Virus genome (UHGV): UHGV-0094761
Source: a virus
Length of the DNA: 42,420 nt
Direction: 5' to 3' (one strand)
Under the pieces are notes generated by a model. It was not told the DNA's origin. It saw nothing but the letters and a program-made list of their open reading frames with translations, and made no database searches. Positions 3,494-41,593 of the stretch are shown here, in pieces. The translations under genes were made by a program, and so were the position numbers. The first letter of the stretch is position 1; every line of letters starts with the position of its first letter.

Positions 3494-3892
3494 TCACTCC
3501 CCCTTCACGCCAATGCCAGCGGCGGCAAGCGCATCACGAAATGCACCAACAACTGCACAGGTGTTAAACATGTCATCGTTGATGCTGCCATCGTCGTTAC
3601 GGTAATCGGCTGGTAATTTAACGGTCACCTTACGCGCCTCCAGTTCTGCTATGCGCTTCTCTGCGGCTTCCAGTGCCTCCACAAGCCTTTCGATTTTTAA
3701 AAATGCTGCATACGCCAAATCAGAAATAGGTCGCTCGAACTGAATTTCTTTGCCATTTTCGTTTTCAATAATTGATTCGAAAATAGCCCCTGCAACAGGG
3801 GACTCTTGTAGTTCGCGTAGTTGTTTTGCCGTTTCCAGCGCATTGACTATCAGCATGTCGGTACGCAGCGCCTGTTTGTTGAGTGCTGTCAT
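3494..3892 (-). CDS. Hypothetical protein (coiled-coil)
   Basis: Start placed at the internal ATG at 3892 (MTALNKQ...), which overlaps the upstream stop as ATGA; the ORF track's longer start at 3967 would overlap the upstream gene. Confidence 0.5.
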   Translation of the reverse strand: MTALNKQALRTDMLIVNALETAKQLRELQESPVAGAIFESIIENENGKEIQFERPISDLAYAAFLKIERLVEALEAAEKRIAELEARKVTVKLPADYRNDDGSINDDMFNTCAVVGAFRDALAAAGIGVKGE

Positions 3893-4383
3893 TGGGCTTC
3901 CTCCAGTTTCGATTTGCGCAGTGCTTCTTTGTAACTTGCCTTTGCCGCTTTCTTTGTCGGCATCCAATCACCGCGAACGTCATAATACGAATCCCAATAC
4001 GCCCGCGAACGGCGGACCATGCGGTATTCCCATTTGTACCGGCCAACTTCACGGTCCTCGTAAACCGGCAACTCAATCCCCAGCCACTCCCCAAACGATT
4101 CGCAGACTTCTGAGTGAAGATAATCATCGTAACGAGTACGTTTCTTCGGCTCTGGAAGTGCAGAAATTGCCGCTTCCTCGCCTTTTTCTGTGACGTGGTA
4201 AAGCGTTCCACCACCCACAAAATCAGGCGCGGGACGGGAGGTAGCGAAACCATCAGATACCAGTTCTTCCCACTTCACGTTATCCGTATGCCCTTCGCCA
4301 GCCAGGAAATAATTACGATATGGAGTGCGGTTTCGCTCACTGATGCCCAGCGCATGCTGCATGAGTTCAATTCCAGTGCTCAT
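3889..4383 (-). CDS. Hypothetical phage protein (164 aa)
   Basis: Protein-like ORF; ATG at 4383 overlaps the stop of the upstream 84-aa gene (ATGA). Confidence 0.6.
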   Translation of the reverse strand: MSTGIELMQHALGISERNRTPYRNYFLAGEGHTDNVKWEELVSDGFATSRPAPDFVGGGTLYHVTEKGEEAAISALPEPKKRTRYDDYLHSEVCESFGEWLGIELPVYEDREVGRYKWEYRMVRRSRAYWDSYYDVRGDWMPTKKAAKASYKEALRKSKLEEAQ

Positions 4384-14285: not shown

Positions 14286-14651
14286 ATGCGTGATATTCAG
14301 ATGGTTTTAGAACGTTGGGGGGGCTGGGCATCAGCTGATAACTCTGGTGTTGACTATTCCCATATTGCCGCTGGCTTCAAGGGACTTTTACCGCAGACAA
14401 GCAAAACCAGGTTGTCATGTACAGATGATGATGCGCTTATCATTGAAGGCTGCCTGGCACGACTGAAAAGCCGAAAGCCATATGAGCATTCGCTTCTTGT
14501 CGCTCATTACCTGTACGGTATCTCGAAGAGGAAGATAGCAAAAGCGCGAAAGAAGGACGAGAAACTGATTCGTATTGAGATACAGATGGCGGAAGGATTT
14601 ATCGACGGCTGTTTGTCTATGTTAGACATACGGTTAGAGATGGATTATTAG
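14286..14651 (+). CDS. Phage antitermination protein Q-like (small Q family)
   Basis: 121 aa; MRDIQMVLERWGGWA... N-terminus; position after the rusA/DUF968 block matches Q in lambdoid phages; family call is from memory. Confidence 0.6.
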   Translation: MRDIQMVLERWGGWASADNSGVDYSHIAAGFKGLLPQTSKTRLSCTDDDALIIEGCLARLKSRKPYEHSLLVAHYLYGISKRKIAKARKKDEKLIRIEIQMAEGFIDGCLSMLDIRLEMDY

Positions 14652-14658
14652 TTTTGAT

Positions 14659-14695
14659 AGACTAAACGGTATTCGAGACCGTTTAGTCTTCTTTG
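14659..14695 (+). terminator. Perfect 12-bp hairpin between convergent Q and the minus-strand cassette
   Basis: AGACTAAACGGT-attcgag-ACCGTTTAGTCT (14659-14689) followed by TCTTTGG; overlaps the 3' end of the minus-strand gene ending at 14683. Confidence 0.5.
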
Positions 14696-15081
14696 GCTGT
14701 ACCGGAAGGTATAACTTCAACAGTTTTACCAATATTGACAATCTTCCTAACGGTTTCCTCACGGTCTTGAATTAGCTCAGCTCTAAATTTCTCACTTACG
14801 TGCGGGCTTTTCAATTGTTCGTCGATGCCCTTCAAATCTCTTTCAAGCCTATTCCGTAGGGCTGCTTCAGCTGGTGATTCAAGTCCATGTCGATTAATAA
14901 CGTACATCATTACGTAGGTTATCCCAGCAGAAACTAAAGGCGCGAGAGCGTATAAGAAAGGACGCCACTCACTGTTCTGTTCTGGCGCGACAAGAGGAAC
15001 TAAAGTCGTCAAAACAGCACCAAGGCCCCCAGTAGTGAGTCCAGAGTTGGTGCTTAACATATTTTTCTTATCGTCGCTCAT
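14683..15081 (-). CDS. Cassette gene 3: small membrane protein (132 aa, two predicted TM helices, charged C-terminal domain)
   Basis: Hydrophobic segments GLGAVLTTLVPLVA and FLYALAPLVSAGITYVMMYVI; start overlaps the upstream stop (ATGA at 15078-15081); AT-rich. Confidence 0.6.
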   Translation of the reverse strand: MSDDKKNMLSTNSGLTTGGLGAVLTTLVPLVAPEQNSEWRPFLYALAPLVSAGITYVMMYVINRHGLESPAEAALRNRLERDLKGIDEQLKSPHVSEKFRAELIQDREETVRKIVNIGKTVEVIPSGTAKED

Positions 15082-15350: not shown

Positions 15351-16232
15351 CTATATCAATTTTTTCCCCTGCATCACTCGATGCCGAAGTACTTTTTTTA
15401 TAACGTACTTTTCGGTCTTTCCTCGCGCTGAAGTGGTACGGGTTGTTTCTAAAAGGACAGAGAACATATCCTCACTAGTTACAGTCCCCTCGGCCATCCT
15501 TACTTTAGCTAAAAACTCATAGTCTGTAAGTAGTACGGAATGCTCCTCTTGGTTGTAATCCATTCTCCAGCCTTTCTCGCTGTGGAAATTAACCTGAGTA
15601 AACTTAACATTAACTTCTTTTTCTTCAACGGTTTTTGTCAGCAGCGTTCCTCTTGGAAGCGGCTTAATTTCCTCGGTCTGATCTCCTTCGAGTTTCACCA
15701 GTACTTCGTCATTTCCATCTACTATTTTGAAAACAGGAGACTCTTTTCCTTCAAGTGGACCTTGAACAACAGAGATCAAAGCATCACGAATCACTGGCTC
15801 GGTTACAAGAGTGGCAACAGCTGACGGGCATTCGATATCTCCATCTTCAAACTCAAGGACTGCCATATCTGTTCCAGCTTTTTTAGTTACCGAAACGACC
15901 TTTTTCGACCCCAACTGCCTAATCAAAGACAACGCACTAGCATGTGCAGCCGCACCAACAGTTCCCACTATCCCAATAGTTTTTAGAACATCTATTGCAT
16001 CAGGTAAAAGTTGCACAACAGTATAAGCAATACCAACTGAACCTTTCTTGAGTGGGGCAGAAACTAAGACCTTAACCGATTTATTGCCATCGTTTAATAA
16101 ATCATCGGCTTTGTTAATTAGTGTCGTCATGGAAAGTATTGATTTTCCAAGATCTTCTGCGTCAATCGCGTGTTTCGACAATTCTTTATCATCGGCGTCA
16201 TAAAACACCTTAAAGGAAGTAGACTTCTCCAT
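15351..16232 (-). CDS. Cassette gene 1: soluble 293-aa protein of unknown function
   Basis: AAGGAAAG RBS before ATG at 16232; no recognisable catalytic motif by eye; AT-rich, unlike the surrounding phage genes. Confidence 0.65.
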   Translation of the reverse strand: MEKSTSFKVFYDADDKELSKHAIDAEDLGKSILSMTTLINKADDLLNDGNKSVKVLVSAPLKKGSVGIAYTVVQLLPDAIDVLKTIGIVGTVGAAAHASALSLIRQLGSKKVVSVTKKAGTDMAVLEFEDGDIECPSAVATLVTEPVIRDALISVVQGPLEGKESPVFKIVDGNDEVLVKLEGDQTEEIKPLPRGTLLTKTVEEKEVNVKFTQVNFHSEKGWRMDYNQEEHSVLLTDYEFLAKVRMAEGTVTSEDMFSVLLETTRTTSARGKTEKYVIKKVLRHRVMQGKKLI

Positions 16233-31214: not shown

Positions 31215-31543
31215 CATTCGTCCTGAAACTGGCGCGTGAATTTCGTCGCCCGGACTGGCGCGCCATGCTTGCTGGTATGTCGTCAACGGAATACGCCGAC
31301 TGGCGAACGTTCTACCAGGACAATTTTTTTAATGATGTGCAACTGGATGCGCATTTTTCCTCGCTGATGCATATCGTCATTACCGCGCTTGACCCCAAAA
31401 CCACATCAACCCCTGCCAGCTTCAGCCTGCTTTCACCTTCTGCGGAGGATATTGCCGACGATGAACCCGGTGATGCTGTGCTGATGGCAAAGGCCGAGGG
31501 CATTTCAGGAGGCGTTCGCTATGGCCCAGACGGCAGTGGGTGA
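31196..31543 (+). CDS. T: Tail assembly chaperone T portion (expressed as G-T fusion by -1 frameshift)
   Basis: The -1 frame relative to G is open from the slip site to 31543 and is homologous to lambda gpT (RPDWRAMLAGMSSTEYADW...GGVRYGPDG). Confidence 0.75.
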   Translation, partial: VLASELTFVLKLAREFRRPDWRAMLAGMSSTEYADWRTFYQDNFFNDVQLDAHFSSLMHIVITALDPKTTSTPASFSLLSPSAEDIADDEPGDAVLMAKAEGISGGVRYGPDGSG

Positions 31544-34037
31544 CCTGGTCGTTAACCTTGATGTTAACTCGTCAAAGTTCAACGAACAGATGGAGTACGT
31601 AAAACGGCAGTTTAAGCAGACGGGTGACGCAGCGAATGACTCTGCGCTGAAGGTGCAGCAGTCATTTACCCGCCAGGAGAGCGCGGCGAAGAAGGCCGGT
31701 ATTTCTGTAGGCCAGTACAACGCCGCGATGCGTATGCTGCCTGCGCAGTTTACGGATATCGCCACCCAGCTGGCCGGTGGTCAAAGCCCATGGCTCATTT
31801 TGCTGCAGCAGGGTGGTCAGGTTAAAGACTCCTTCGGCGGTATCATGCCGACCTTCAGGGCGCTGCTGGGCACCATATCGCCGGTGATGGTGGGGGTTGG
31901 CGCGCTGGCAGCCGCCACCGGTGCGGTGGTTTACGCCTGGTATCAGGGCTCGTCCACGCTGTCTGATTTCAACAAAACGCTGGTCCTGTCCGGAAACACT
32001 GCCGGGCTGACCTCAAACCGCATGCTGGTTCTGGCGAAATCCGGCGAGCAGGCGGGACTCACGTTTAACCAGACCAGCAACGCGCTGACGGAGCTGGTTA
32101 ACGCCGGAGTGCGTGCCGGTGCCCGGTTCGATGATATGAGTCAGGCGGTAGCGAAATTCACCGATGCGTCGGGTGTGCCGGTCGATAAGGTGGCGGCGGC
32201 ATTCGGCAAACTGACGAACGATCCGACCTCTGGTCTGATTGCCATGGCGCAGCAGTTCCATAACGTCACAGCGGAACAGATTGCTTATGTGGCACAGCTG
32301 CAACGTGCCGGGGATGAAGCCGGGGCGCTGCAGGCGGCTAATGATGCGGCGACGAATGGTTTTCGTGAGCAGACAAAGAGCCTGCGCGACAATATGGGGT
32401 CGATTGAGACTGCTGCCGACAGCCTGAAGCGTGCCTTTAAATCGATGTGGGATGCGGCGCTCGATATCGGCCGGCCTGACACCACGCAGGAGATGGTTGC
32501 CAAAGCTGAAGCGGCCTTTAAGCGGGCGGATGAAATCTGGAATCTGCGTAAAGGTGATGGTTATGTCAATGAGGATGCGCGCGCCAGCTACTGGAACGAT
32601 CGGGAATCTGCACGCCTTGCACTGGAAATGGCGCAGCAGCAGGCCAGTGTGGCAAAGGCAACTGAGGATAACGCCGCACGCGAGGCGGTGATTGAGTCTG
32701 ATCGCCAGAAGTATGCCGCGCAGGCGCAGGCTGCATATTCAAAGACCGAATCAGCTTTGGATAAATTTACGGCAAAACAGAAAGAATATAATCAGGCCAT
32801 CAAAGACGGACGTATCCTCCAGGCTGATTACAATATTCTGATGGCAGCCGCTAAGAAGGAATACGACGACTCACTGAAGAAGCCTAAAAAGCCGTCAGCA
32901 GTGAAAACACCTGCAGGTGTAAAAAGTGTCGATACTGCCAGCGCGCAGACGCTGGAGTTGGAGGCGCAGTTACGCACTCTGCAGGATCATAAGAGCATCA
33001 CGGATACCATCAGCCAGCAGCGGCAGGAATTGTGGAAACAACAATCCCGCTTTTCAGTGCTGGAAGAGGCCGCCAAAAAGCGCGCGCTGACCGCCGATGA
33101 AAAATCGGTGCTGGCGAACAAAGACGAGGTACTGGCGCGGGCCGAAGTGAATGCCCGGCTGGGCGATCAGATTGTTGCCCAGGAACGGTTAAACCGCCTG
33201 CAGGACAGCTCGCAGAAGTACGTTACCCAGATCGGGGAGAAGACCCGAGCGCTGGTGGCCGGGGGCAGCATGAGTAGCCGCGGCGCGCAGCGGCAAAACG
33301 AAGAGGCACAGCTGCGGCAGGGCTGGATGAATGCAGGTGGATCGGATTCCGATCAGGGTTATCAGAACGAACTGGCGGCGCTGAAAAAATATTATGCAGC
33401 CCAAGATAAGTTAAGAGGTGACTGGAGTGCTGGAGCTAAATCAGCATGGGCCGACTACGTGGAGTCGGCTGAAAACGCCTATGACTCCATTAAGTCAGTA
33501 GCAACATCCACATTTGATGGAATCAGCCATAGTCTTGCTGACATGCTTACAACTGGGAAAGCAAACCTAGCTGATTTTACCCGTTCCACGTTGTCGATGC
33601 TGACGCAGATACTGATGAAGCAGGCTATGGCTGGCTTGGTTAGTTCTGCCACGTCATCACTTGGATTTGCAGGTGGTGGGTATACCGGAACTGGCGGCAA
33701 GTTTGAGCCAGCAGGTGTGGTGCACCGTGGAGAGTTTGTCTTTACGCAGGAGGCCACTAACCGAATCGGTGTCGGCAACCTTTATCGCATGATGCGCGGT
33801 TATGCGACTGGCGGTCTGGTCGGGGGGAGTGGCGGTGGCGTTGCTTCTCCTTTTGGTGTCAGCGTGTATGCGCCAGTTTCGGTTACAACAGGCCAGGGAG
33901 ATTCCGGTCAACAGAAAGGAAGTGGTGATGCGCTGGGGAAAGCCTATCAGCAGGTGATCAACAGTTCCATCAGGGAAGGTATCACCAGAGAGGTCCGGCC
34001 CGGCGGTATCATCTGGAATGCAACAAAACAGAGGTAA
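31521..34037 (+). CDS. H: Tail tape measure protein H
   Basis: 838 aa; N-terminal ...VGDLVV.L........EQM..V.R.F...AGISVGQY.AAMRMLPAQFTD.ATQLAGGQSPWLILLQQGGQVKDSFGG matches lambda gpH; extended coiled-coil. Confidence 0.95.
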   Translation: MAQTAVGDLVVNLDVNSSKFNEQMEYVKRQFKQTGDAANDSALKVQQSFTRQESAAKKAGISVGQYNAAMRMLPAQFTDIATQLAGGQSPWLILLQQGGQVKDSFGGIMPTFRALLGTISPVMVGVGALAAATGAVVYAWYQGSSTLSDFNKTLVLSGNTAGLTSNRMLVLAKSGEQAGLTFNQTSNALTELVNAGVRAGARFDDMSQAVAKFTDASGVPVDKVAAAFGKLTNDPTSGLIAMAQQFHNVTAEQIAYVAQLQRAGDEAGALQAANDAATNGFREQTKSLRDNMGSIETAADSLKRAFKSMWDAALDIGRPDTTQEMVAKAEAAFKRADEIWNLRKGDGYVNEDARASYWNDRESARLALEMAQQQASVAKATEDNAAREAVIESDRQKYAAQAQAAYSKTESALDKFTAKQKEYNQAIKDGRILQADYNILMAAAKKEYDDSLKKPKKPSAVKTPAGVKSVDTASAQTLELEAQLRTLQDHKSITDTISQQRQELWKQQSRFSVLEEAAKKRALTADEKSVLANKDEVLARAEVNARLGDQIVAQERLNRLQDSSQKYVTQIGEKTRALVAGGSMSSRGAQRQNEEAQLRQGWMNAGGSDSDQGYQNELAALKKYYAAQDKLRGDWSAGAKSAWADYVESAENAYDSIKSVATSTFDGISHSLADMLTTGKANLADFTRSTLSMLTQILMKQAMAGLVSSATSSLGFAGGGYTGTGGKFEPAGVVHRGEFVFTQEATNRIGVGNLYRMMRGYATGGLVGGSGGGVASPFGVSVYAPVSVTTGQGDSGQQKGSGDALGKAYQQVINSSIREGITREVRPGGIIWNATKQR

Positions 34038-34040
34038 GCA

Positions 34041-34388
34041 ATGGCGATCGAGCATTTTGCGTGGCGGATTAAAGCATCCAGCCAGCCGACCCTGAAAAGT
34101 AAGGATACCGTCCGCACGGCGCAGTTTGGTGATGGTTATAAGCAGGTGTCAGGTGCCGGGCTGAATGATGAAACGCTCAGCTATGAGTTTTCATTTACCG
34201 GCGAACCGGGAACTGTAAAGGATATCTATGCTTTCCTGCGGCGCCATAAGACGAAATCATTTTCGTTTACCCCGCCTGGCGGTGATCTTGCGCTGTGGCG
34301 CGTTGAGGCAGACAGCCTGCAGCGCGTCACCAAAAGTAAAACGGTGGAAACCGTATCAGCCACCTTTGAACAGGCGTTTGCACCATGA
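34041..34388 (+). CDS. M: Minor tail protein M
   Basis: 115 aa; position and size match lambda gpM. Confidence 0.85.
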   Translation: MAIEHFAWRIKASSQPTLKSKDTVRTAQFGDGYKQVSGAGLNDETLSYEFSFTGEPGTVKDIYAFLRRHKTKSFSFTPPGGDLALWRVEADSLQRVTKSKTVETVSATFEQAFAP

Positions 34389-35140
34389 GCTTAAACAGTG
34401 ATTATCAGAAACTTGAGCCGGGCAATGTTGTCCGGCTTTTTGATGTCGATGGCACCGCATTTGGTGTTTCCGACGTTCTCCGCTTCCACGCCCATAATAT
34501 TGCCCACACCGCCGATGAAATCGCCGCTGCTGGTGGAGATGAAAATAAGCTACCGGCAAAATCGATCTGGTGGCAAGGACAGGAATATAAAGCCTGGCCT
34601 TGTCAGATAGAGGGGATTGAGACGGCGACCGATGGGACCAGCGCGCAGCCAACGCTCTCGGTCGCTAACCTGGATAGTTCCATTACGGCGTTGTGTCTTG
34701 CTTATGATGACCTGCTGCAGGCAAAGGTTACTGTTCATGACACGCTGGCGCAGTATCTGGATGCGAAAAACTATCCGGAGGGCAACCCGTCGGCGGATCC
34801 TCAGCAGGAAAAGCTGAAGGTGTTTTACATAGACGCCAAGAGCACTGAAACCAACGAAGTGGTGGCGTTTACGTTGTCCAGCCCGATGGATCTGCAGGGG
34901 CTGATGATCCCGACACGCCAGCTACATTCGCTTTGTACCTGGTGCATCCGGAATAAATACCGCTCCGGTGATGGATGCGACTATGCCGGGACGCGCTATT
35001 TCGACAAGCACAACAACCCGGTTAACGATCCGTCACTCGATGAATGCCCCGGTACACTCACTGCGTGCAAGTTGCGACATGGCGAGGGGAACGAGTTGCC
35101 GTTCGGTGGTTTCCCTGGCACATCCCTGATCAGGAGCTGA
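34385..35140 (+). CDS. L: Minor tail protein L
   Basis: 251 aa; C-terminal Cys cluster (CTWC...C...C) consistent with the Fe-S-binding region of lambda gpL. Confidence 0.85.
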   Translation: MSLNSDYQKLEPGNVVRLFDVDGTAFGVSDVLRFHAHNIAHTADEIAAAGGDENKLPAKSIWWQGQEYKAWPCQIEGIETATDGTSAQPTLSVANLDSSITALCLAYDDLLQAKVTVHDTLAQYLDAKNYPEGNPSADPQQEKLKVFYIDAKSTETNEVVAFTLSSPMDLQGLMIPTRQLHSLCTWCIRNKYRSGDGCDYAGTRYFDKHNNPVNDPSLDECPGTLTACKLRHGEGNELPFGGFPGTSLIRS

Positions 35141-35141
35141 T

Positions 35142-35858
35142 ATGCGTCAGAAAATTATCGACGCCATTATGGCGCATGCTGCTGCTGAATATCCGCGCGA
35201 ATGCTGCGGCGTGGTGGTACAGAAAAGCAGGGTGCAGCGGTATATTCCCTGCCGTAATCTGGCAACTGATCCGACAGAGCATTTCCACCTGTCACCGGAG
35301 GATTACGCCGCTGCCGAAGACTGGGGTACGGTGATTGCCATTGTCCACAGTCACCCTGACGCAACGACACAGCCGAGCGAACTGGATAAGGCACAGTGTG
35401 ATGCTACGTTACTTCCCTGGCATATCGTGAGCTGGCCGGAGGGGGATTTACGCACCATTCAGCCGCGCGGAGAATTGCCGCTGCTGGAACGCCCGTTTGT
35501 TCTTGGTCACTTCGATTGCTGGGGGCTGGTGATGAGTTACTTCAGGCAGACGCATGGTATTGAACTGAAGGATTACCGCGTCGATTATCCCTGGTGGGAA
35601 GACAGTTACCCCGAAAACTTCTACCACGATTGCTGGTATGAATGTGGATTCCGTGAATTCAGCGGCGCATCACAGCCAGGTGATATGGTGATCATGCAGG
35701 TGCAGTCAAATAAATGGAACCATGCCGGGATACTGCTTGACGGCAATATGCTACTGCATCATCTTTACGGACACCTTAGTCAACGTGTACCCTATGGAGG
35801 GTATTGGCAGGAGCGAACAATGAAAATTTTACGTTTTAAGAATCTTCTAAGTCAGTAA
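35142..35858 (+). CDS. K: Tail assembly protein K (JAB/MPN plus NlpC/P60-like)
   Basis: 238 aa; HSHPD metalloprotease-type motif (AIVHSHPD) and C-terminal Cys/His region, as in lambda gpK. Confidence 0.85.
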   Translation: MRQKIIDAIMAHAAAEYPRECCGVVVQKSRVQRYIPCRNLATDPTEHFHLSPEDYAAAEDWGTVIAIVHSHPDATTQPSELDKAQCDATLLPWHIVSWPEGDLRTIQPRGELPLLERPFVLGHFDCWGLVMSYFRQTHGIELKDYRVDYPWWEDSYPENFYHDCWYECGFREFSGASQPGDMVIMQVQSNKWNHAGILLDGNMLLHHLYGHLSQRVPYGGYWQERTMKILRFKNLLSQ

Positions 35859-35930
35859 TTCATTTATTGTTTTTTGTGATTCCTGTCTGCTTGTTAATTT
35901 AAAAACTAATGATAAACATAGGGAATATAA

Positions 35931-36371
35931 ATGTTTAGAGGTATGGCAGTATCTATGTTAGCTGTGGTTATTTTGAGTGGTTGCTCTAATCAAGAGGCCA
36001 TCAAAAAACACACTGCATCTGGTAAACCTGAAGCGGAATATCCAGGTAAAACTAAAGAACAGGTAAAGGACGCGTTAGTTTCTTATTGTAACCAAAAAGG
36101 ATTGTCAGTATTTGAATCTACAGAATCACTTGTAATATGTGGAAAGCAGACTGATAGCGTATTGGCACAAATGCTCGTGGGTAATTCATATTCAACCCCA
36201 TCTATGGCAAAGATTAGATTTACTATAGCTTCGGTAAATAATGCCCCGAAAGTATGGAGTGATATGTGGATTGAAAGCCAAATGCCAGGAGGACAGTTAA
36301 ATCAGATGCCATCAAAAAATAATACAGATATTAACTCAGTGCAAAATATGCTTGATAATCTACAGCCATAA
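35931..36371 (+). CDS. Lipoprotein moron inserted between K and I (unknown function)
   Basis: 146 aa; signal peptide with lipobox LSGC; strongly AT-rich; has its own terminator; lambda has no gene at this position. Confidence 0.6.
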   Translation: MFRGMAVSMLAVVILSGCSNQEAIKKHTASGKPEAEYPGKTKEQVKDALVSYCNQKGLSVFESTESLVICGKQTDSVLAQMLVGNSYSTPSMAKIRFTIASVNNAPKVWSDMWIESQMPGGQLNQMPSKNNTDINSVQNMLDNLQP

Positions 36372-36390
36372 TAAAACTTTTAATGAAAAA

Positions 36391-36411
36391 CCCACCGCAA
36401 GGTGGGTTTTT
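36391..36411 (+). terminator. Rho-independent terminator after the lipoprotein moron
   Basis: CCCACC-gcaa-GGTGGG followed by 5 T, preceded by 5 A (bidirectional potential). Confidence 0.6.
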
Positions 36412-36433
36412 CATTTGTGGGGGTACGCGTAAA

Positions 36434-37015
36434 ATGGCACAGATAATACTCTGTGGAGTTCTTGGTAAGACGTTTGGGAAAGAACATTTTCGATTAATTG
36501 ATAGAGTCGGAGAAGCAGGTGTTGCGTTATCAAAAACAATACCCGGATTTGAAAAATTCATGATTTCGAGTAAGCGTCGTGGCATTACATACGCTATTTT
36601 TAAGGGGAAGAAGAATATCGGTCTTGACGACTTTGGTTTTCCTGTTTCTGATGAAGTTATTCGCATTGTTCCAGTAATTATCGGTAGTAAACGCTCTGGT
36701 CTGTTACAGACTATCTTAGGTGCTGTCATTGTTATTGCATCAGCCATCGGTAGCTATTTTGCACCGGGCAACCCAATTTCCGCATTTGGATTTAAGGTTG
36801 GTGCAGCAATGATGATTGGTGGTGTAGTTCAAATGCTATCGCCACAGCCAGCAGGACTTGCCAGCAAACAGGATGCCGAAAATCGGGCATCGTATGCATT
36901 CGGTGGTGTAACTAACACTGCTGCTCAGGGTAATCCAGTTCCGCTTCTTTATGGTCGCAGACGTATTGGCGGGGCGATCATCTCTGCCGGTATATACGTC
37001 GAAGACCAGCAATAA
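36434..37015 (+). CDS. I: Tail assembly protein I
   Basis: Start at ATG 36434 (MAQIILCGV...), downstream of the terminator; ubiquitin-like N-terminal domain and Gly/Ala-rich hydrophobic C-terminus, as in lambda gpI. Confidence 0.75.
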   Translation: MAQIILCGVLGKTFGKEHFRLIDRVGEAGVALSKTIPGFEKFMISSKRRGITYAIFKGKKNIGLDDFGFPVSDEVIRIVPVIIGSKRSGLLQTILGAVIVIASAIGSYFAPGNPISAFGFKVGAAMMIGGVVQMLSPQPAGLASKQDAENRASYAFGGVTNTAAQGNPVPLLYGRRRIGGAIISAGIYVEDQQ

Positions 37016-37036
37016 CCAAAGCAATCTTCCTTTCAG

Positions 37037-37059
37037 GCTACCTTATGGTGGCTTTTTTT
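37037..37059 (+). terminator. Terminator-like hairpin between I and J
   Basis: GCTACC-ttat-GGTGGC (one G-U pair) followed by 7 T (37053-37059), 12 nt before the J start. Confidence 0.4.
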
Positions 37060-37070
37060 ATGGGCGTAAT

Positions 37071-40000
37071 ATGGCTACAGCAACCCCGATTAAAGGCCGC
37101 AAGGGCGGCAGTTCCAGTTCAAGAACCCCTACCGAACAGCCAGATGATCTGCAATCTGTAGCGAAGGCCAAAATCCTCGTTGCGCTTGGTGAAGGGGAGT
37201 TTGCAGGACAGCTAACCGGCAAAGATATTTACCTAGACGGAACGGCGCTGGAGAACGCCGACGGCTCCCAAAACTTTAGCGGCGTGACGTGGGAGTTTCG
37301 CGCGGGAACGCAGGCACAAAATTACATTCAGGGAATTCCCGGTACCGAAAACGAAATCAATGTTGGAACTGAAGTATCAAGCGCTACTGCCTGGACGCGC
37401 ACCTTCACCAACACCCAACTATCAGCCGTTCGCCTGCGACTGAAATGGCCTTCACTGTTTAAGCAGGAGGACAACGGCGATCTGGTAGGGTATTCCATCA
37501 ATTATGCGATAGACCTGCAGACTGATGGTGGGACCTGGCAAACCGTACTTAATACCAGTGCAACCGGCAAAACGACGTCTGGTTATGAGCGCAGCCACCG
37601 TATTGATTTACCGCAGGCTGGCAGCACCTGGACAATCCGACTGCGTAAGATCACCGCTGATGCAAACAGCGCGAAGATCGGCGACACGATGACGCTGCAG
37701 AGTTTTACCGAGGTGATTGACGCCAAACTGCGCTACCCGAATACCGCGCTGCTGTACATCGAATTCGACTCGAGTCAGTTTAACGGTTCAATACCGCAGA
37801 TCTCCTGTGAGCCTCGCGGGCGCGTGATCCGTGTTCCTGATAATTACGACCCTGAAACGAGGGCTTACAGCGGTACATGGCAGGGCGCGTTTAAGTGGGC
37901 CTGGACTGATAACCCGGCGTGGATATTTTACGATCTGGTGATTACCGATCGTTTTGGTCTGGGTAATCGCCTGACTGCAGCCAACATCGATAAATGGACG
38001 TTGTACCAGGTATCGCAGTATTGCGATCAGCCGGTACCGGACGGAAAGGGTGGAAGCGGGACAGAGCCACGCTATACCTGTAACGTCTATGTTCAGGACA
38101 GGAATGACGCTTACACTGTGCTGCGTGACTTTGCGGCTATATTCCGGGGTATGACGTACTGGGGCGGTGATCAGATTGTTGCGCTTGCCGATATGCCGAG
38201 AGATGTGGATTACGCTTACACCCGCGCTAACGTTATCGACGGACGCTTTACCTATTCCAGCAGCACGACAAAAACGCGGTATACCACGGCGCTGGTTTCC
38301 TGGTCTGATCCGGGTAACGCCTATGCAGATGCGATGGAGCCGGTGTTTGAGCAGCCTCTGGTGGCACGGTACGGATTTAATCAGCTGGAAATGACAGCCA
38401 TCGGCTGCACCAGGCAGTCAGAAGCGAACCGTAAGGGGCGCTGGGGTATTCTCACCAACAACAAGGATCGCGTTGTTTCGTTTGATGTCGGGCTGGACGG
38501 AAACATTCCGCAGCCGGGATACATCATCGCCGTGTCAGACGAGCTTCTGTCCGGCAAAGTTATGGGCGGTCGTATCAGTACCGTTAACGGTCGCGTGATA
38601 AAACTTGACCGCGTAGCTGATGCAGCAGCAGGCGATCGCCTGATTCTCAACCTTCCCTCCGGCGCGTCACAGAGCAGGACTATTCAGGCGGTTAACGCGG
38701 AATTTGTCACAGTCACCACGGCATACAGTGAGACGCCACATGCCGAAGCTGTATGGGTGGTTGAGTCAGATGAACTCTACGCCCAGCAGTATCGTGTTGT
38801 CAGTGTCTCCGATAACAATGATGGTACCTTCTCGATTACCGGCGCATGGCACGACCCGGATAAATATGCCCGTATCGATACCGGAGCCATCATTGACCAG
38901 CGGCCGGTGAGTGTGATCCCGCCGGGTAACCAGTCGCCGCCGGCTAACATTGTGATCAGCTCGTTTTCAGTGGTTCAGCAGAATATCAGCGTTGAGACCA
39001 TGCGGGTGAGCTGGGACCAGGCGCAGAACGCCATCGCCTACGAGGCACAGTGGCGCCGCAATGATGGTAACTGGGTAAACGTGCCGCGCAGCTCCACCAA
39101 CTCATTTGATGTATCGGGTATTTATGCAGGGCGCTACCTCGTGCGTGTGCGTGCCATTAATGCCGCTGAAATTTCCTCTGGCTGGGGCTATTCCGAAGAA
39201 AAAACGCTGACGGGTAAGGTGGGAAATCCGCCAAAACCTGTCGGCTTTGCGACAACGCCGATCAACTGGGGGATTCGCCTGAACTGGGGATTCCCGGCTA
39301 ACACCGGGGACACGCTGAAAACGGAAATTCAGTACACCGCGAACAGTGATTTCTCAAATCCTCTGCTGTTGTCTGATGTGCCTTATCCTTCTGCCGAATA
39401 CACTCAACTGGGATTAAAAGCGGGGCAGGAATTCTGGTACCGCGCGCAGCTGGTAGACAGAACGGGTAATGAATCAGGCTGGACCGACTGGGTTCGTGGA
39501 GAATCTAATGCGAATGCTGACGACTACCTGGGCGATATTGCAGATGACTTTCTCACATCTGCCGATGGTGACCGCCTGACAGGCGACATTGATACCAATC
39601 TCGAAGCCGCTTTGCAGAACGCGCTGGCCAACCATGCAACCGTGGAACACCAGTGGGCGCAGTACGGCGAGGTACGTGCGGATATTCTGGTGGTTAAAAC
39701 GACCATTGCTGATGTTGATAAAGCGATGGCTGAAATGTCGACGCAGGTGCAGGCGCAGTTCAATGATGTGACTGCCGCGCTGGAAGATAAGCTCACCGCC
39801 GTGGTTGATGCGACCGGGGCATCTGCAATTTACACCCTTAAAACCGGGGTTCGAATAAACGGTGTGATGTATAACGCCGGGATGTCGATCGCGGTACTGG
39901 CGGAAGCGGGTAAGCCGGTAGTCACCCGCGTCGGGTTTAACGCTAATCAGTTCGTCCTGATGAGTGGCAGTGGTGATACGCAATATTCACCGTTTGCCAT

Positions 40001-40256
40001 TATCAACGGTCAGGTATTTATCAGCGATGCGTTTATTCAGTATAGCCAAATCACGCTGGCAAAAATTGGTGAGCTGCGATCCGCTAATTATGTACAGGGA
40101 CAAACCGGCACCATCATGAAATCAGACGGGACGTTTGAAATGAATGGGGCGGTTGCCGGAGAGGGTGCAACGAAAATGACCAATCTCAATTACAGCGTTA
40201 AAGATGGCAATGGCGTTCTCCGCGTGCAGATTGGCAAATTAACAGGGGTATTCTGA
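37071..40256 (+). CDS. J: Tail tip / host specificity protein J (central fibre)
   Basis: Start at ATG 37071 (MATATPIKGRKGG...); about 1060 aa; conserved gpJ core (NTALLYIEFDS..F, YTCNVYVQDRNDAY) and FN3-like repeats; C-terminal receptor-binding region differs from lambda. Confidence 0.9.
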   Translation: MATATPIKGRKGGSSSSRTPTEQPDDLQSVAKAKILVALGEGEFAGQLTGKDIYLDGTALENADGSQNFSGVTWEFRAGTQAQNYIQGIPGTENEINVGTEVSSATAWTRTFTNTQLSAVRLRLKWPSLFKQEDNGDLVGYSINYAIDLQTDGGTWQTVLNTSATGKTTSGYERSHRIDLPQAGSTWTIRLRKITADANSAKIGDTMTLQSFTEVIDAKLRYPNTALLYIEFDSSQFNGSIPQISCEPRGRVIRVPDNYDPETRAYSGTWQGAFKWAWTDNPAWIFYDLVITDRFGLGNRLTAANIDKWTLYQVSQYCDQPVPDGKGGSGTEPRYTCNVYVQDRNDAYTVLRDFAAIFRGMTYWGGDQIVALADMPRDVDYAYTRANVIDGRFTYSSSTTKTRYTTALVSWSDPGNAYADAMEPVFEQPLVARYGFNQLEMTAIGCTRQSEANRKGRWGILTNNKDRVVSFDVGLDGNIPQPGYIIAVSDELLSGKVMGGRISTVNGRVIKLDRVADAAAGDRLILNLPSGASQSRTIQAVNAEFVTVTTAYSETPHAEAVWVVESDELYAQQYRVVSVSDNNDGTFSITGAWHDPDKYARIDTGAIIDQRPVSVIPPGNQSPPANIVISSFSVVQQNISVETMRVSWDQAQNAIAYEAQWRRNDGNWVNVPRSSTNSFDVSGIYAGRYLVRVRAINAAEISSGWGYSEEKTLTGKVGNPPKPVGFATTPINWGIRLNWGFPANTGDTLKTEIQYTANSDFSNPLLLSDVPYPSAEYTQLGLKAGQEFWYRAQLVDRTGNESGWTDWVRGESNANADDYLGDIADDFLTSADGDRLTGDIDTNLEAALQNALANHATVEHQWAQYGEVRADILVVKTTIADVDKAMAEMSTQVQAQFNDVTAALEDKLTAVVDATGASAIYTLKTGVRINGVMYNAGMSIAVLAEAGKPVVTRVGFNANQFVLMSGSGDTQYSPFAIINGQVFISDAFIQYSQITLAKIGELRSANYVQGQTGTIMKSDGTFEMNGAVAGEGATKMTNLNYSVKDGNGVLRVQIGKLTGVF

Positions 40257-40570
40257 TGTCATGGGGAATTCAGACGTGGGACGCAAATGGCGTCCCTAAT
40301 AACTACGGCATTAAACCTGTTTCTGTGGTGGGAATCATCGATCTTGCTTTAGGTCAGAAAACAGGAAGCTACCAGTTCAACCTTGAGCCTGGCTTAAAGG
40401 TTGGGTTTGCAGTTGGTACTCTGGAGGATAAAGGGACAATAAGTTACACAGATAAAAGAAATATTATTGCATCTGGAAACACCATAACAATACAGCCTTC
40501 AGGTAGTGATGGGATTAATGATTACCCGGCAGTCAAAGTGCAGTTAATCGTTTTTGCGGAGACTGCGTAG
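40256..40570 (+). CDS. Hypothetical protein (104 aa) downstream of J, paralogous to the next gene
   Basis: ATG overlaps the J stop (TGATG); shares the motif WG-x2-(T/I)WDA-(N/E)-G with the following ORF. Confidence 0.55.
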   Translation: MSWGIQTWDANGVPNNYGIKPVSVVGIIDLALGQKTGSYQFNLEPGLKVGFAVGTLEDKGTISYTDKRNIIASGNTITIQPSGSDGINDYPAVKVQLIVFAETA

Positions 40571-41245
40571 ATGGCTAAATATGGCGCATTGATTTCATTA
40601 CCTAACGGGAACCCTTTTATCACGCCTGATTCCACACCAATGACGCTTTACCGGAAAGTCACTGTAAACTCAACTTTTGGAGGGGATTTTAACAGTGCTT
40701 CTGCGTCCGTGACTGTCGACGGTCAGAAGGGAGGGATTGCATTTGCACGAACCAGCGCCCCGGCGAAGATATCAGCTTCAAAAAGTGGCAACACGTTCAG
40801 TGTTGATGCGTCTAATTACAGAGGTTCGGCTTTCGTGCTGGAGGCGTATTTTTTTGCCATATATCCGCTTACCCTTCCGGCCTGGGGTGTGGCTATATGG
40901 GATGCCGAAGGGACACTGGTACTTACGAATGAGTCCCGGGTATTAAGCGACCTTACAACTATAGGCTCACCCGGCGCTGCAACGGGTGGGCTTAACATCG
41001 ATACATACATGGCAGGCAAATGGGCCGTAAATCCGATGGGGCTGGGATCTGTTCTCCTTCATGCTGGTTCGGCACCCGGTGGACAGCCAATAATTCAGTC
41101 TGTGGATGTGGGTACAGGTTGCTTCAATGACGGTGCGGGAACGAGAATAAAAGGACTTTCATCAACAACAGCAAGCGGCTCTTCAATCGGAACGACGAAT
41201 AGCGGGATTGTAATAACGGCGATAAACACAGCCGTATATGATTAA
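40571..41245 (+). CDS. Hypothetical beta-rich protein (224 aa) downstream of J
   Basis: Starts immediately after the previous stop; Gly/Ser/Thr-rich; contains the same WGVAIWDAEG motif. Confidence 0.55.
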   Translation: MAKYGALISLPNGNPFITPDSTPMTLYRKVTVNSTFGGDFNSASASVTVDGQKGGIAFARTSAPAKISASKSGNTFSVDASNYRGSAFVLEAYFFAIYPLTLPAWGVAIWDAEGTLVLTNESRVLSDLTTIGSPGAATGGLNIDTYMAGKWAVNPMGLGSVLLHAGSAPGGQPIIQSVDVGTGCFNDGAGTRIKGLSSTTASGSSIGTTNSGIVITAINTAVYD

Positions 41246-41353: not shown

Positions 41354-41593
41354 ATGAAAAATATAATTATTCCCGTTATTGCATGTCTGGTGCTTTCTGC
41401 ATGTTCAGGACCTGTTCTGGAGAAACAGAAACCGGTTTGTCAGGCTGAGTTAGTGGCTGGTGGACTGCCCCAGTCAGTGCAGATTTACGGTGTGCGAAAA
41501 GTTGCTAATCAGACTGAGTACAGAGCCGGTTATCCATTTAACTGGCGATGGGTGAATAAAAATAACTTCACCAGTTCGAATTGCCCTCAATGA
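41354..41593 (+). CDS. Small lipoprotein (79 aa), candidate Cor-like superinfection-exclusion protein
   Basis: Signal peptide with lipobox LSAC; AT-rich upstream region; sits between J and the tail fibre gene; followed by a terminator. Confidence 0.5.
   Translation: MKNIIIPVIACLVLSACSGPVLEKQKPVCQAELVAGGLPQSVQIYGVRKVANQTEYRAGYPFNWRWVNKNNFTSSNCPQ

Follow-up and report, generated by a model that had tools for sequence, protein, structure and literature searches.

Here we describe a lipoprotein gene carried in the tail module of the lambdoid prophage represented by UHGV virus genome UHGV-0094761 (42,420 nucleotides, hereafter the window). The gene encodes a protein of 146 amino acids (aa) and lies between tail genes K and I. 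It is very probably a moron in the Juhala/Hendrix sense, that is, a horizontally acquired accessory cassette, residing in the N15/HK022-like tail module of a Citrobacter prophage. As to its role we favour, with a probability of roughly 0.4 and largely by analogy, an envelope-level exclusion or defence factor that would act independently of the receptor used by its own phage. The element is ordinary in kind, being a prophage lipoprotein moron; the protein family to which it belongs is new, with neither a Pfam or NCBIfam model nor a solved structure.

The lipoprotein cassette at the K-I junction

The late region of the prophage is collinear with those of N15 and HK022. A reading made from the sequence alone (the sequence-only reading) had placed the lipoprotein gene as an insertion exactly between K and I, and this holds: the two tail genes flank it in the window (Table 1) and, in the comparison with relatives that had been proposed as a check, adjoin without an insert in N15 and HK225. 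Homology to N15 at the DNA level is interrupted only from about 35828 to about 36454, and the inserted segment comprises some 575 bp (35859-36433). Over 235 of 238 residues K shares 90% identity with N15 gp19, the last ~10 codons differing, and I is 76% identical to N15 gp20 starting at residue 1; the true start of I is the ATG at 36434, not the in-frame upstream ATG at 36383, which falls within the hairpin described below. The AT-rich spacer that precedes the lipoprotein gene is kept among the closest relatives only. The gene has a GC content of 0.37, much lower, as had been claimed, than the 0.511 of the whole window, and the values upstream and downstream of it are 0.53 and 0.47. The earlier proposal that the gene is a moron is thus well founded, because the cassette is additional DNA when set against N15 and HK225, deviates in GC, ends in a terminator and belongs to a family found at many positions.

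In phage phiKO2 the same slot is occupied by gp19, a protein of 111 aa that GenBank names a "putative moron" and that is followed by an annotated terminator. Like the window lipoprotein it starts with a lipobox (MLSGC), but the mature sequences are unrelated and homology between the two was ruled out. Since phiKO2 has a different gene there, the K-I junction is a recurrent slot for accessory genes.

The tract of low GC around the cassette runs from about 35700 to about 36800 and is wider than the moron, reaching into the last codons of K on one side and over the 5' half of I (GC about 0.40) on the other. The I protein is just 75-76% identical to its counterparts in N15 and in the closest Citrobacter relatives; in those relatives K, L, M and J are 90-98% identical. 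Because the tract exceeds the moron and I diverges more than K, L, M and J, these observations suggest a mosaic breakpoint around the cassette.

The N-terminus of the protein (MFRGMAVSMLAVVILSGC) has an Arg in its n-region, then a hydrophobic core and the lipobox L-S-G-C, which satisfies the pattern [LVI][ASTVI][GAS]C. The lipoprotein gene with this lipobox, as first reported, is present, and its Cys18 is unchanged in 15 of the 15 aligned family members; the protein is predicted to be exported and lipidated at this residue. The Lol pathway sorts lipoproteins by the residue that follows the Cys, an Asp at this position (+2) meaning that the protein is not sent to the outer membrane. Since residue +2 of the window protein is Ser and not Asp, the signal sequence indicates that Lol most likely sorts it to the inner leaflet of the outer membrane; in the aligned close relatives this residue is A, S, T or V and never Asp.

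The protein matches PHROG 3152, a family labelled "unknown function", with E 7.7e-46 (residues 5-146 on positions 4-148 of a profile of 148). The ratio of nonsynonymous to synonymous substitution rates (dN/dS) of the gene, calculated against relatives 90-92% identical, is 0.06-0.07; this is a real gene under purifying selection and no chance open reading frame (ORF). In the close-family alignment Cys53 and Cys70 are also invariant and probably form a periplasmic disulfide, and the motifs TxSGKxE, GNxxST and VWxxMWxExQMxxGQ do not vary.

We modelled the protein with AlphaFold2 from an alignment of 14 sequences (mean predicted local distance difference test, pLDDT, 86.5; predicted template modelling score, pTM, 0.75). 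In the model a disordered tether past the lipid anchor leads to a compact alpha+beta domain that begins at about residue 33 and contains a helix (42-55), five strands and a C-terminal helix (131-142). The domain would be helix-grip-like, on a tether of about 15 residues. Its best fold matches were the helix-grip domains of BamC, KA1 (kinase-associated-1) domains and the SRPBCC/Bet v 1-like lipid-binding folds, all of them a general fold likeness only (5-13% identity, template modelling score 0.4-0.5), with no evidence of homology or shared function. The fold search of BFVD, which holds predicted viral structures, returned no meaningful match. No sequence match for the mature domain was obtained in Pfam, NCBIfam, PADLOC or PDB, the single hit of a Pfam scan of the lipoprotein at E ≤ 1 (EAD7) being spurious, and literature searches retrieved no paper on the family. 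Two other identities were considered and ruled out: an o-spanin, with which the similarity is confined to the signal peptide, and an MliC/PliC-like lysozyme inhibitor, to which an SG-containing motif had pointed. The MliC/PliC inhibitors are all-beta and the model is alpha+beta.

The lipoprotein gene is followed by a hairpin of the intrinsic-terminator type, whose 14-bp stem (AUGAAAAACCCACC / GGUGGGUUUUUCAU) starts 11 bases past the stop codon. The 61-nt stretch of RNA folds with -26.4 kcal/mol (z = -5.1), and none of 200 shuffled sequences folded as well. The sequence-only reading had called this a strong bidirectional terminator. Its strength is borne out by the folding, and with an A-run before the GC core and a T-run after it the putative terminator is bidirectional in form; the bidirectionality, however, has no evident use, because no gene converges on the hairpin. 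A simple terminator scan overlooked it because the T-run is absorbed into the stem. In other phages, most family copies that were examined likewise have a hairpin with a T-run behind them. In lambda, Q-modified polymerase reads through terminators in late transcription, and by analogy the terminator after most copies may be taken as indirect evidence of transcription that needs a stop when Q is absent.

Distribution of the family

An initial protein search returned 14 close clusters, mostly from Citrobacter, in which the gene is at K-I, and in a tblastn search of 50,697 phage records only PhiR40_1 and PhiR55_1 matched. Searching 1.84 billion representatives (of clusters at 50% identity) with a profile returned 679 clusters at E ≤ 1e-3, 250 of them at E ≤ 1e-10. 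In phages, members of the family fill eight slots or more, the majority of them junctions of tail genes or places next to the lysis cassette. They stand between K and I, between the tape measure gene H and M, between M and L, between the tail chaperone gene and the tape measure and, in phages of a different tail type, after Dit and tail genes. A Haemophilus parainfluenzae-type prophage has its copy between NinG and the holin, a Mu-like Halomonas prophage between Mor and the holin. In about 50 contigs of E. coli lambdoid prophages and in PhiR40_1 and PhiR55_1 the gene is on the opposite strand and separates Q from the Dam methylase/holin genes. Most of the copies examined are lower in GC than their flanks. 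These varied positions, together with the absence from close relatives, mark the gene as accessory.

The E. coli version is 49-50% identical to the window lipoprotein, is found in 185 of 5,426 complete genomes, where its annotation reads "hypothetical protein". Because they are antisense to the late operon, these copies must have their own promoter; a candidate, TTGATT-16-AATAAT, is statistically not distinctive. The promoter scan of 24 representative loci gave best matches no better than those of shuffled controls.

The family also extends beyond phage late regions. A PDZ-fused relative is carried by a Stenotrophomonas integrase island (L167, L168; 4047-7066 and 8275-10912), between PDC-S52 (DUF6988) and PDC-S21 (DUF4917), which PADLOC lists as candidate defence genes, and in one variant of this island a CBASS operon (DncV-like nucleotidyltransferase, E1/E2, JAB) lies a few kb away. 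Others were located in a Stenotrophomonas prophage between replication and lysis genes, in a Sphingosinicella integrase/AlpA island, on an Erythrobacter plasmid adjoining ParB-like and helicase genes, and on a conjugative Kosakonia plasmid adjoining an integrase. A relative of 154 aa (P0216; L177, 476-1923) is chromosomal and lies between two genes for 140-aa FKBP_N/FKBP_C isomerases; a second, apparently ordinary chromosomal relative is found among metabolic genes. DNA injection by phage HK97 needs the periplasmic FKBP chaperone FkpA, and the FKBP-flanked relative may be a lead to a partner.

Many of the longer members of the family have an added C-terminal PDZ domain (11 of the 44 sampled), some of them with a SHOCT domain as well. 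The fused PDZ is of the periplasmic DegP/DegQ/RseP type and, being joined to distant relatives of the lipoprotein, points to a periplasmic protein or peptide as the partner.

Directly after the Q gene of the window there are two opposite-strand ORFs (Table 1). They are candidate morons as well and occupy the Q-to-lysis slot, the one that in E. coli holds the relatives of the lipoprotein. The I-J junction also serves as an accessory slot: it holds a 158-aa opposite-strand ORF in some Citrobacter relatives (L005, 7367-7843, minus strand; L017; L018), and a small extra gene, gp20 (3894-4160), plus a terminator in HK225 (L175). The terminator-like hairpin with a T-run that the window has between I and J matches in position this HK225 terminator and the stem-loop annotated between N15 genes 20 and 21. 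The H-M slot, which bears the lipoprotein in other phages, holds a 71-aa ORF (3813-4028) in the metagenomic relatives L006 and L007.

Table 1. Features of the window discussed in the text
Feature	Position	Strand	Details
Q antiterminator	14286-14651	+	Pfam Phage_antitermQ, E 1.4e-53
ORF, candidate moron	14683-15081	-	132 aa; no family
ORF, candidate moron	15351-16232	-	293 aa; PHROG 3243, unknown function
Tape measure H	31521-34037		
M	34041-34388		
L	34385-35140		
Tail gene K	35142-35858	+	Prok-JAB, E 8e-23; NlpC_P60, E 3e-21; phrog_30, E 7e-134
AT-rich spacer	35859-35930	+	72 nt; Shine-Dalgarno-like AGGGA at 35920-35924
Lipoprotein gene	35931-36371	+	441 bp; 146 aa; PHROG 3152; predicted signal peptide aa 1-17, lipobox LSGC, Cys18 codon 35982-35984, Ser at +2
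Intrinsic-terminator-type hairpin	36383-36414	+	GC core CCCACC/GGTGGG; loop GCAA; T-run 36407-36411; 5' A-run
Tail gene I	36434-37015	+	phrog_32, E 1e-68
Terminator-like hairpin with T-run	37035-37054	+	between I and J
J	about 37071-40256		
N15 gp22-like and gp23-like genes	40256-40570, 40571-41245		between J and cor
cor	41354-41593	+	79-aa Cor-family lipoprotein; PHROG 1119 (Cor superinfection exclusion protein), E 8e-26

Candidate functions of the lipoprotein

In the reading that we favour, the lipoprotein would act on the envelope of the carrier cell against incoming phages, and possibly against other mobile DNA, its target being a conserved periplasmic or outer-membrane component or a step of DNA delivery, and not the receptor of the carrier phage. 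In the lysogen, where the gene is presumably expressed, the hairpin after it would stop transcripts that start upstream, leaving I and J unexpressed; during lytic growth the polymerase modified by Q would pass the hairpin. Exclusion or defence is favoured because the family is cargo of several kinds of mobile element, is biased towards tail-tip and lysis positions and has one defence-island neighbourhood, and because HK97 gp15 and the mEpimmI lipoproteins provide precedents. At the level of the whole family we would go further only with hesitation, the following proposal being doubtful: a new, widespread class of mobile exclusion or defence factors of the envelope, built on a conserved periplasmic domain (TxSGxPE, GNSYST, ExQMxxGQ and a Cys-Cys pair) that is either lipid-anchored or fused to a DegP-type PDZ and that blocks a conserved periplasmic step of DNA delivery, not a particular receptor. 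The block might fall, for example, at the channel formed by tape measure and tail tip or at a periplasmic chaperone on which it depends. Such a receptor-independent block would explain the spread of the family among phages with unrelated receptor-binding proteins, defence islands and plasmids.

The sequence-only reading had thought of receptor masking, as by Cor or Llp, or of Bor-like serum resistance. What survives of this is the general idea of exclusion or defence, which is plausible; there is no match to any of these families, a cor gene is already present and the J ends of the carriers are unrelated, so that the functional suggestion stays an analogy. Masking of the carrier's outer-membrane receptor from the periplasmic side, which would block adsorption of the same and related phages, deserves to be weighed because an outer-membrane-type lipoprotein is encoded here near the gene for the receptor-binding protein. 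The last 299 residues of the window J (39357-40253) share 79-82% identity with N15 gp21 and HK225 J and 46-48% with the J of ES18 and HK022; we take N15 and HK225 to be FhuA users, and on that assumption the C-terminus suggests a receptor-binding domain of the FhuA type. Masking also has precedents in Cor, Llp and the mEpimmI Lpp proteins (PMC3594210, PMC11893012). However, the window contains a genuine cor gene downstream of J, in the same place as N15 gene 24 and in an arrangement from J to cor that is that of N15 genes 21-24, so the classical FhuA-masking role is already covered. We compared the last 300 residues of J in the 18 loci where it is complete (17 family carriers and the window). 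The J C-termini of the carriers fall into at least five unrelated groups (22-29% or no similarity), despite lipoproteins that are 74-90% identical: the figures are 90% for the lipoprotein and 29% for the J C-terminus in L098, and 75-77% and 22-25% in L010 and L101. Cor, by comparison, co-occurs only with N15-like J ends, L098 excepted. That the lipoprotein tracks the receptor-binding domain of its own carrier was therefore ruled out. Members of the family are also found in Mu-like prophages, plasmids and islands that lack any J, and nothing past the signal peptide resembles Cor. Because the carriers have unrelated receptor-binding domains, these comparisons make masking of the carrier's own receptor unlikely.

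The main rival to exclusion or defence is a host-fitness factor, a lysogenic-conversion gene in the manner of Bor/Iss that would contribute to envelope robustness, to stress or serum resistance or to periplasmic protein quality control. We regard this as possible, if tentative. It is in line with a family that is cargo of many kinds of mobile element and not of phages alone, and with the E. coli lambdoid copies, which are near the lysis genes on the opposite strand, as we take lambda bor to be. The fusions to DegP-type PDZ domains, the relative between two FKBP-type isomerase genes and the fold matches to BamC, KA1 and lipid-binding domains fit it too, and so does the mature domain, which is strongly conserved, with polar motifs that do not change across the family. 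Against it, there is no match to Bor (Pfam, E ≤ 1) or to any characterised family of envelope homeostasis, and the strong bias to phage late regions and tail-tip junctions would be left unexplained. A role confined to the lytic cycle, with transcription as part of the late operon, could consist in inactivating the receptors of lysing cells, which would save progeny from being lost on debris, or in a modulation of lysis or of the envelope. In its favour, the gene has the orientation of the late operon and no detectable promoter of its own, Q is encoded in the window, and several relatives are found immediately upstream of holin or lysis genes whose orientation they share. The terminator after most copies, though, is best explained by transcription that needs a stop without Q, and the plasmid and island copies, which have no lytic cycle, together with the E. 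coli copies antisense to the late operon, argue against this role, to which we give little credence. Finally, a tail-assembly or virion component native to the K-I position, which the sequence-only reading had named as the finding that would overturn it, is effectively refuted. Nothing but the location among tail-tip genes speaks for it; N15 and HK225, with K, I and J that are 76-90% identical to those of the window, lack the gene, its family is found at many other positions, some of them outside tail modules, the product has a lipoprotein export signal and a terminator separates the gene from I.

Several observations weigh against the exclusion or defence reading itself. The lipoprotein is homologous to none of the exclusion or defence proteins that have been characterised. 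Neither consensus nor relaxed scans detected a sigma-70 promoter upstream of the gene on the plus strand, and since none stands out in the window or in the majority of the relatives, expression of the gene in the lysogen can only be presumed. The conservation of the mature domain, which is not diversifying, suits a housekeeping-type ligand as well as it does defence, and some relatives live in ordinary chromosomal neighbourhoods, beside the FKBP-type isomerase genes or among metabolic genes. In P0233, the sole PDZ-fused relative inspected at the level of its sequence, the signal peptide lacks the lipobox Cys. The non-phage contexts sampled amount to a handful, and the association with defence islands comes from one island.

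Significance and comparison with known systems

Superinfection exclusion and lysogenic conversion are known to arise from lipoprotein morons carried in the late operons of phages. If the lipoprotein proves to be an exclusion or defence factor independent of the receptor, it would represent a new mechanism at the level of the envelope, and a practical concern for the prediction of host range and for phage therapy in Enterobacteriaceae; as a fitness factor it would be one more lysogenic-conversion gene. The interest lies in the family, which is widespread, structurally confident, uncharacterised and, consisting here of one gene of 441 bp, easily tested.

The homology and structure searches that had been proposed as a check did not connect the protein to Cor, Bor or Llp, apart from the signal peptide of Cor. 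The Cor profile (PHROG 1119) matched with E 0.12 and over residues 7-36 only, and BLASTP against the Cor encoded in the window itself aligned the signal peptide and nothing beyond. The Bor family of Pfam did not match at E ≤ 1, neither Llp nor any named exclusion protein was among the matches listed in the PDB and BFVD fold searches, and PADLOC-DB 2.0 had no match for the window lipoprotein or for three relatives, the only matches (PDC-S21 and PDC-S52) being to the neighbours of one relative.

Cor of phi80, N15 and HK022 is alike in setting: cor, as the window gene does, encodes a small accessory lipoprotein and is carried by lambdoid phages with an N15-type J in their tail region, and both products are expected in the outer membrane of the lysogen. 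The two differ in length (79 and 146 aa), share only a signal peptide and occur as separate genes in the window. Lambda Bor/Iss, which give serum resistance, are likewise prophage-borne morons for a lipoprotein, in their case of the outer membrane, but differ from the window protein in size and predicted fold. T5 Llp and the mEpimmI proteins Lpp021 and Lpp010 resemble it in being encoded beside or within structural genes; in contrast to the present family they track the receptor of their own phage, and the tblastn search of 50,697 phage records gave no sequence match to them. In the mEpimmI coliphages these lipoproteins of the structural cluster exclude phages when expressed (PMC11893012).

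A parallel to the mode of action that we favour is offered by HK97 gp15. This moron product excludes superinfecting phages at DNA entry, in a manner that depends on the tail region of the incoming phage, and its gene lies between the tail chaperone and tape-measure genes (PMC3594210). A small protein of the inner membrane that belongs to the YebO family, it is neither a lipoprotein nor homologous to the one of the window. As in the window, its gene is a moron in a tail operon with bacterial homologues outside prophages. The exclusion by gp15 does not depend on the masking of a receptor, and one relative of the window lipoprotein (L156) occupies the same region between chaperone and tape measure as HK97 gene 15.

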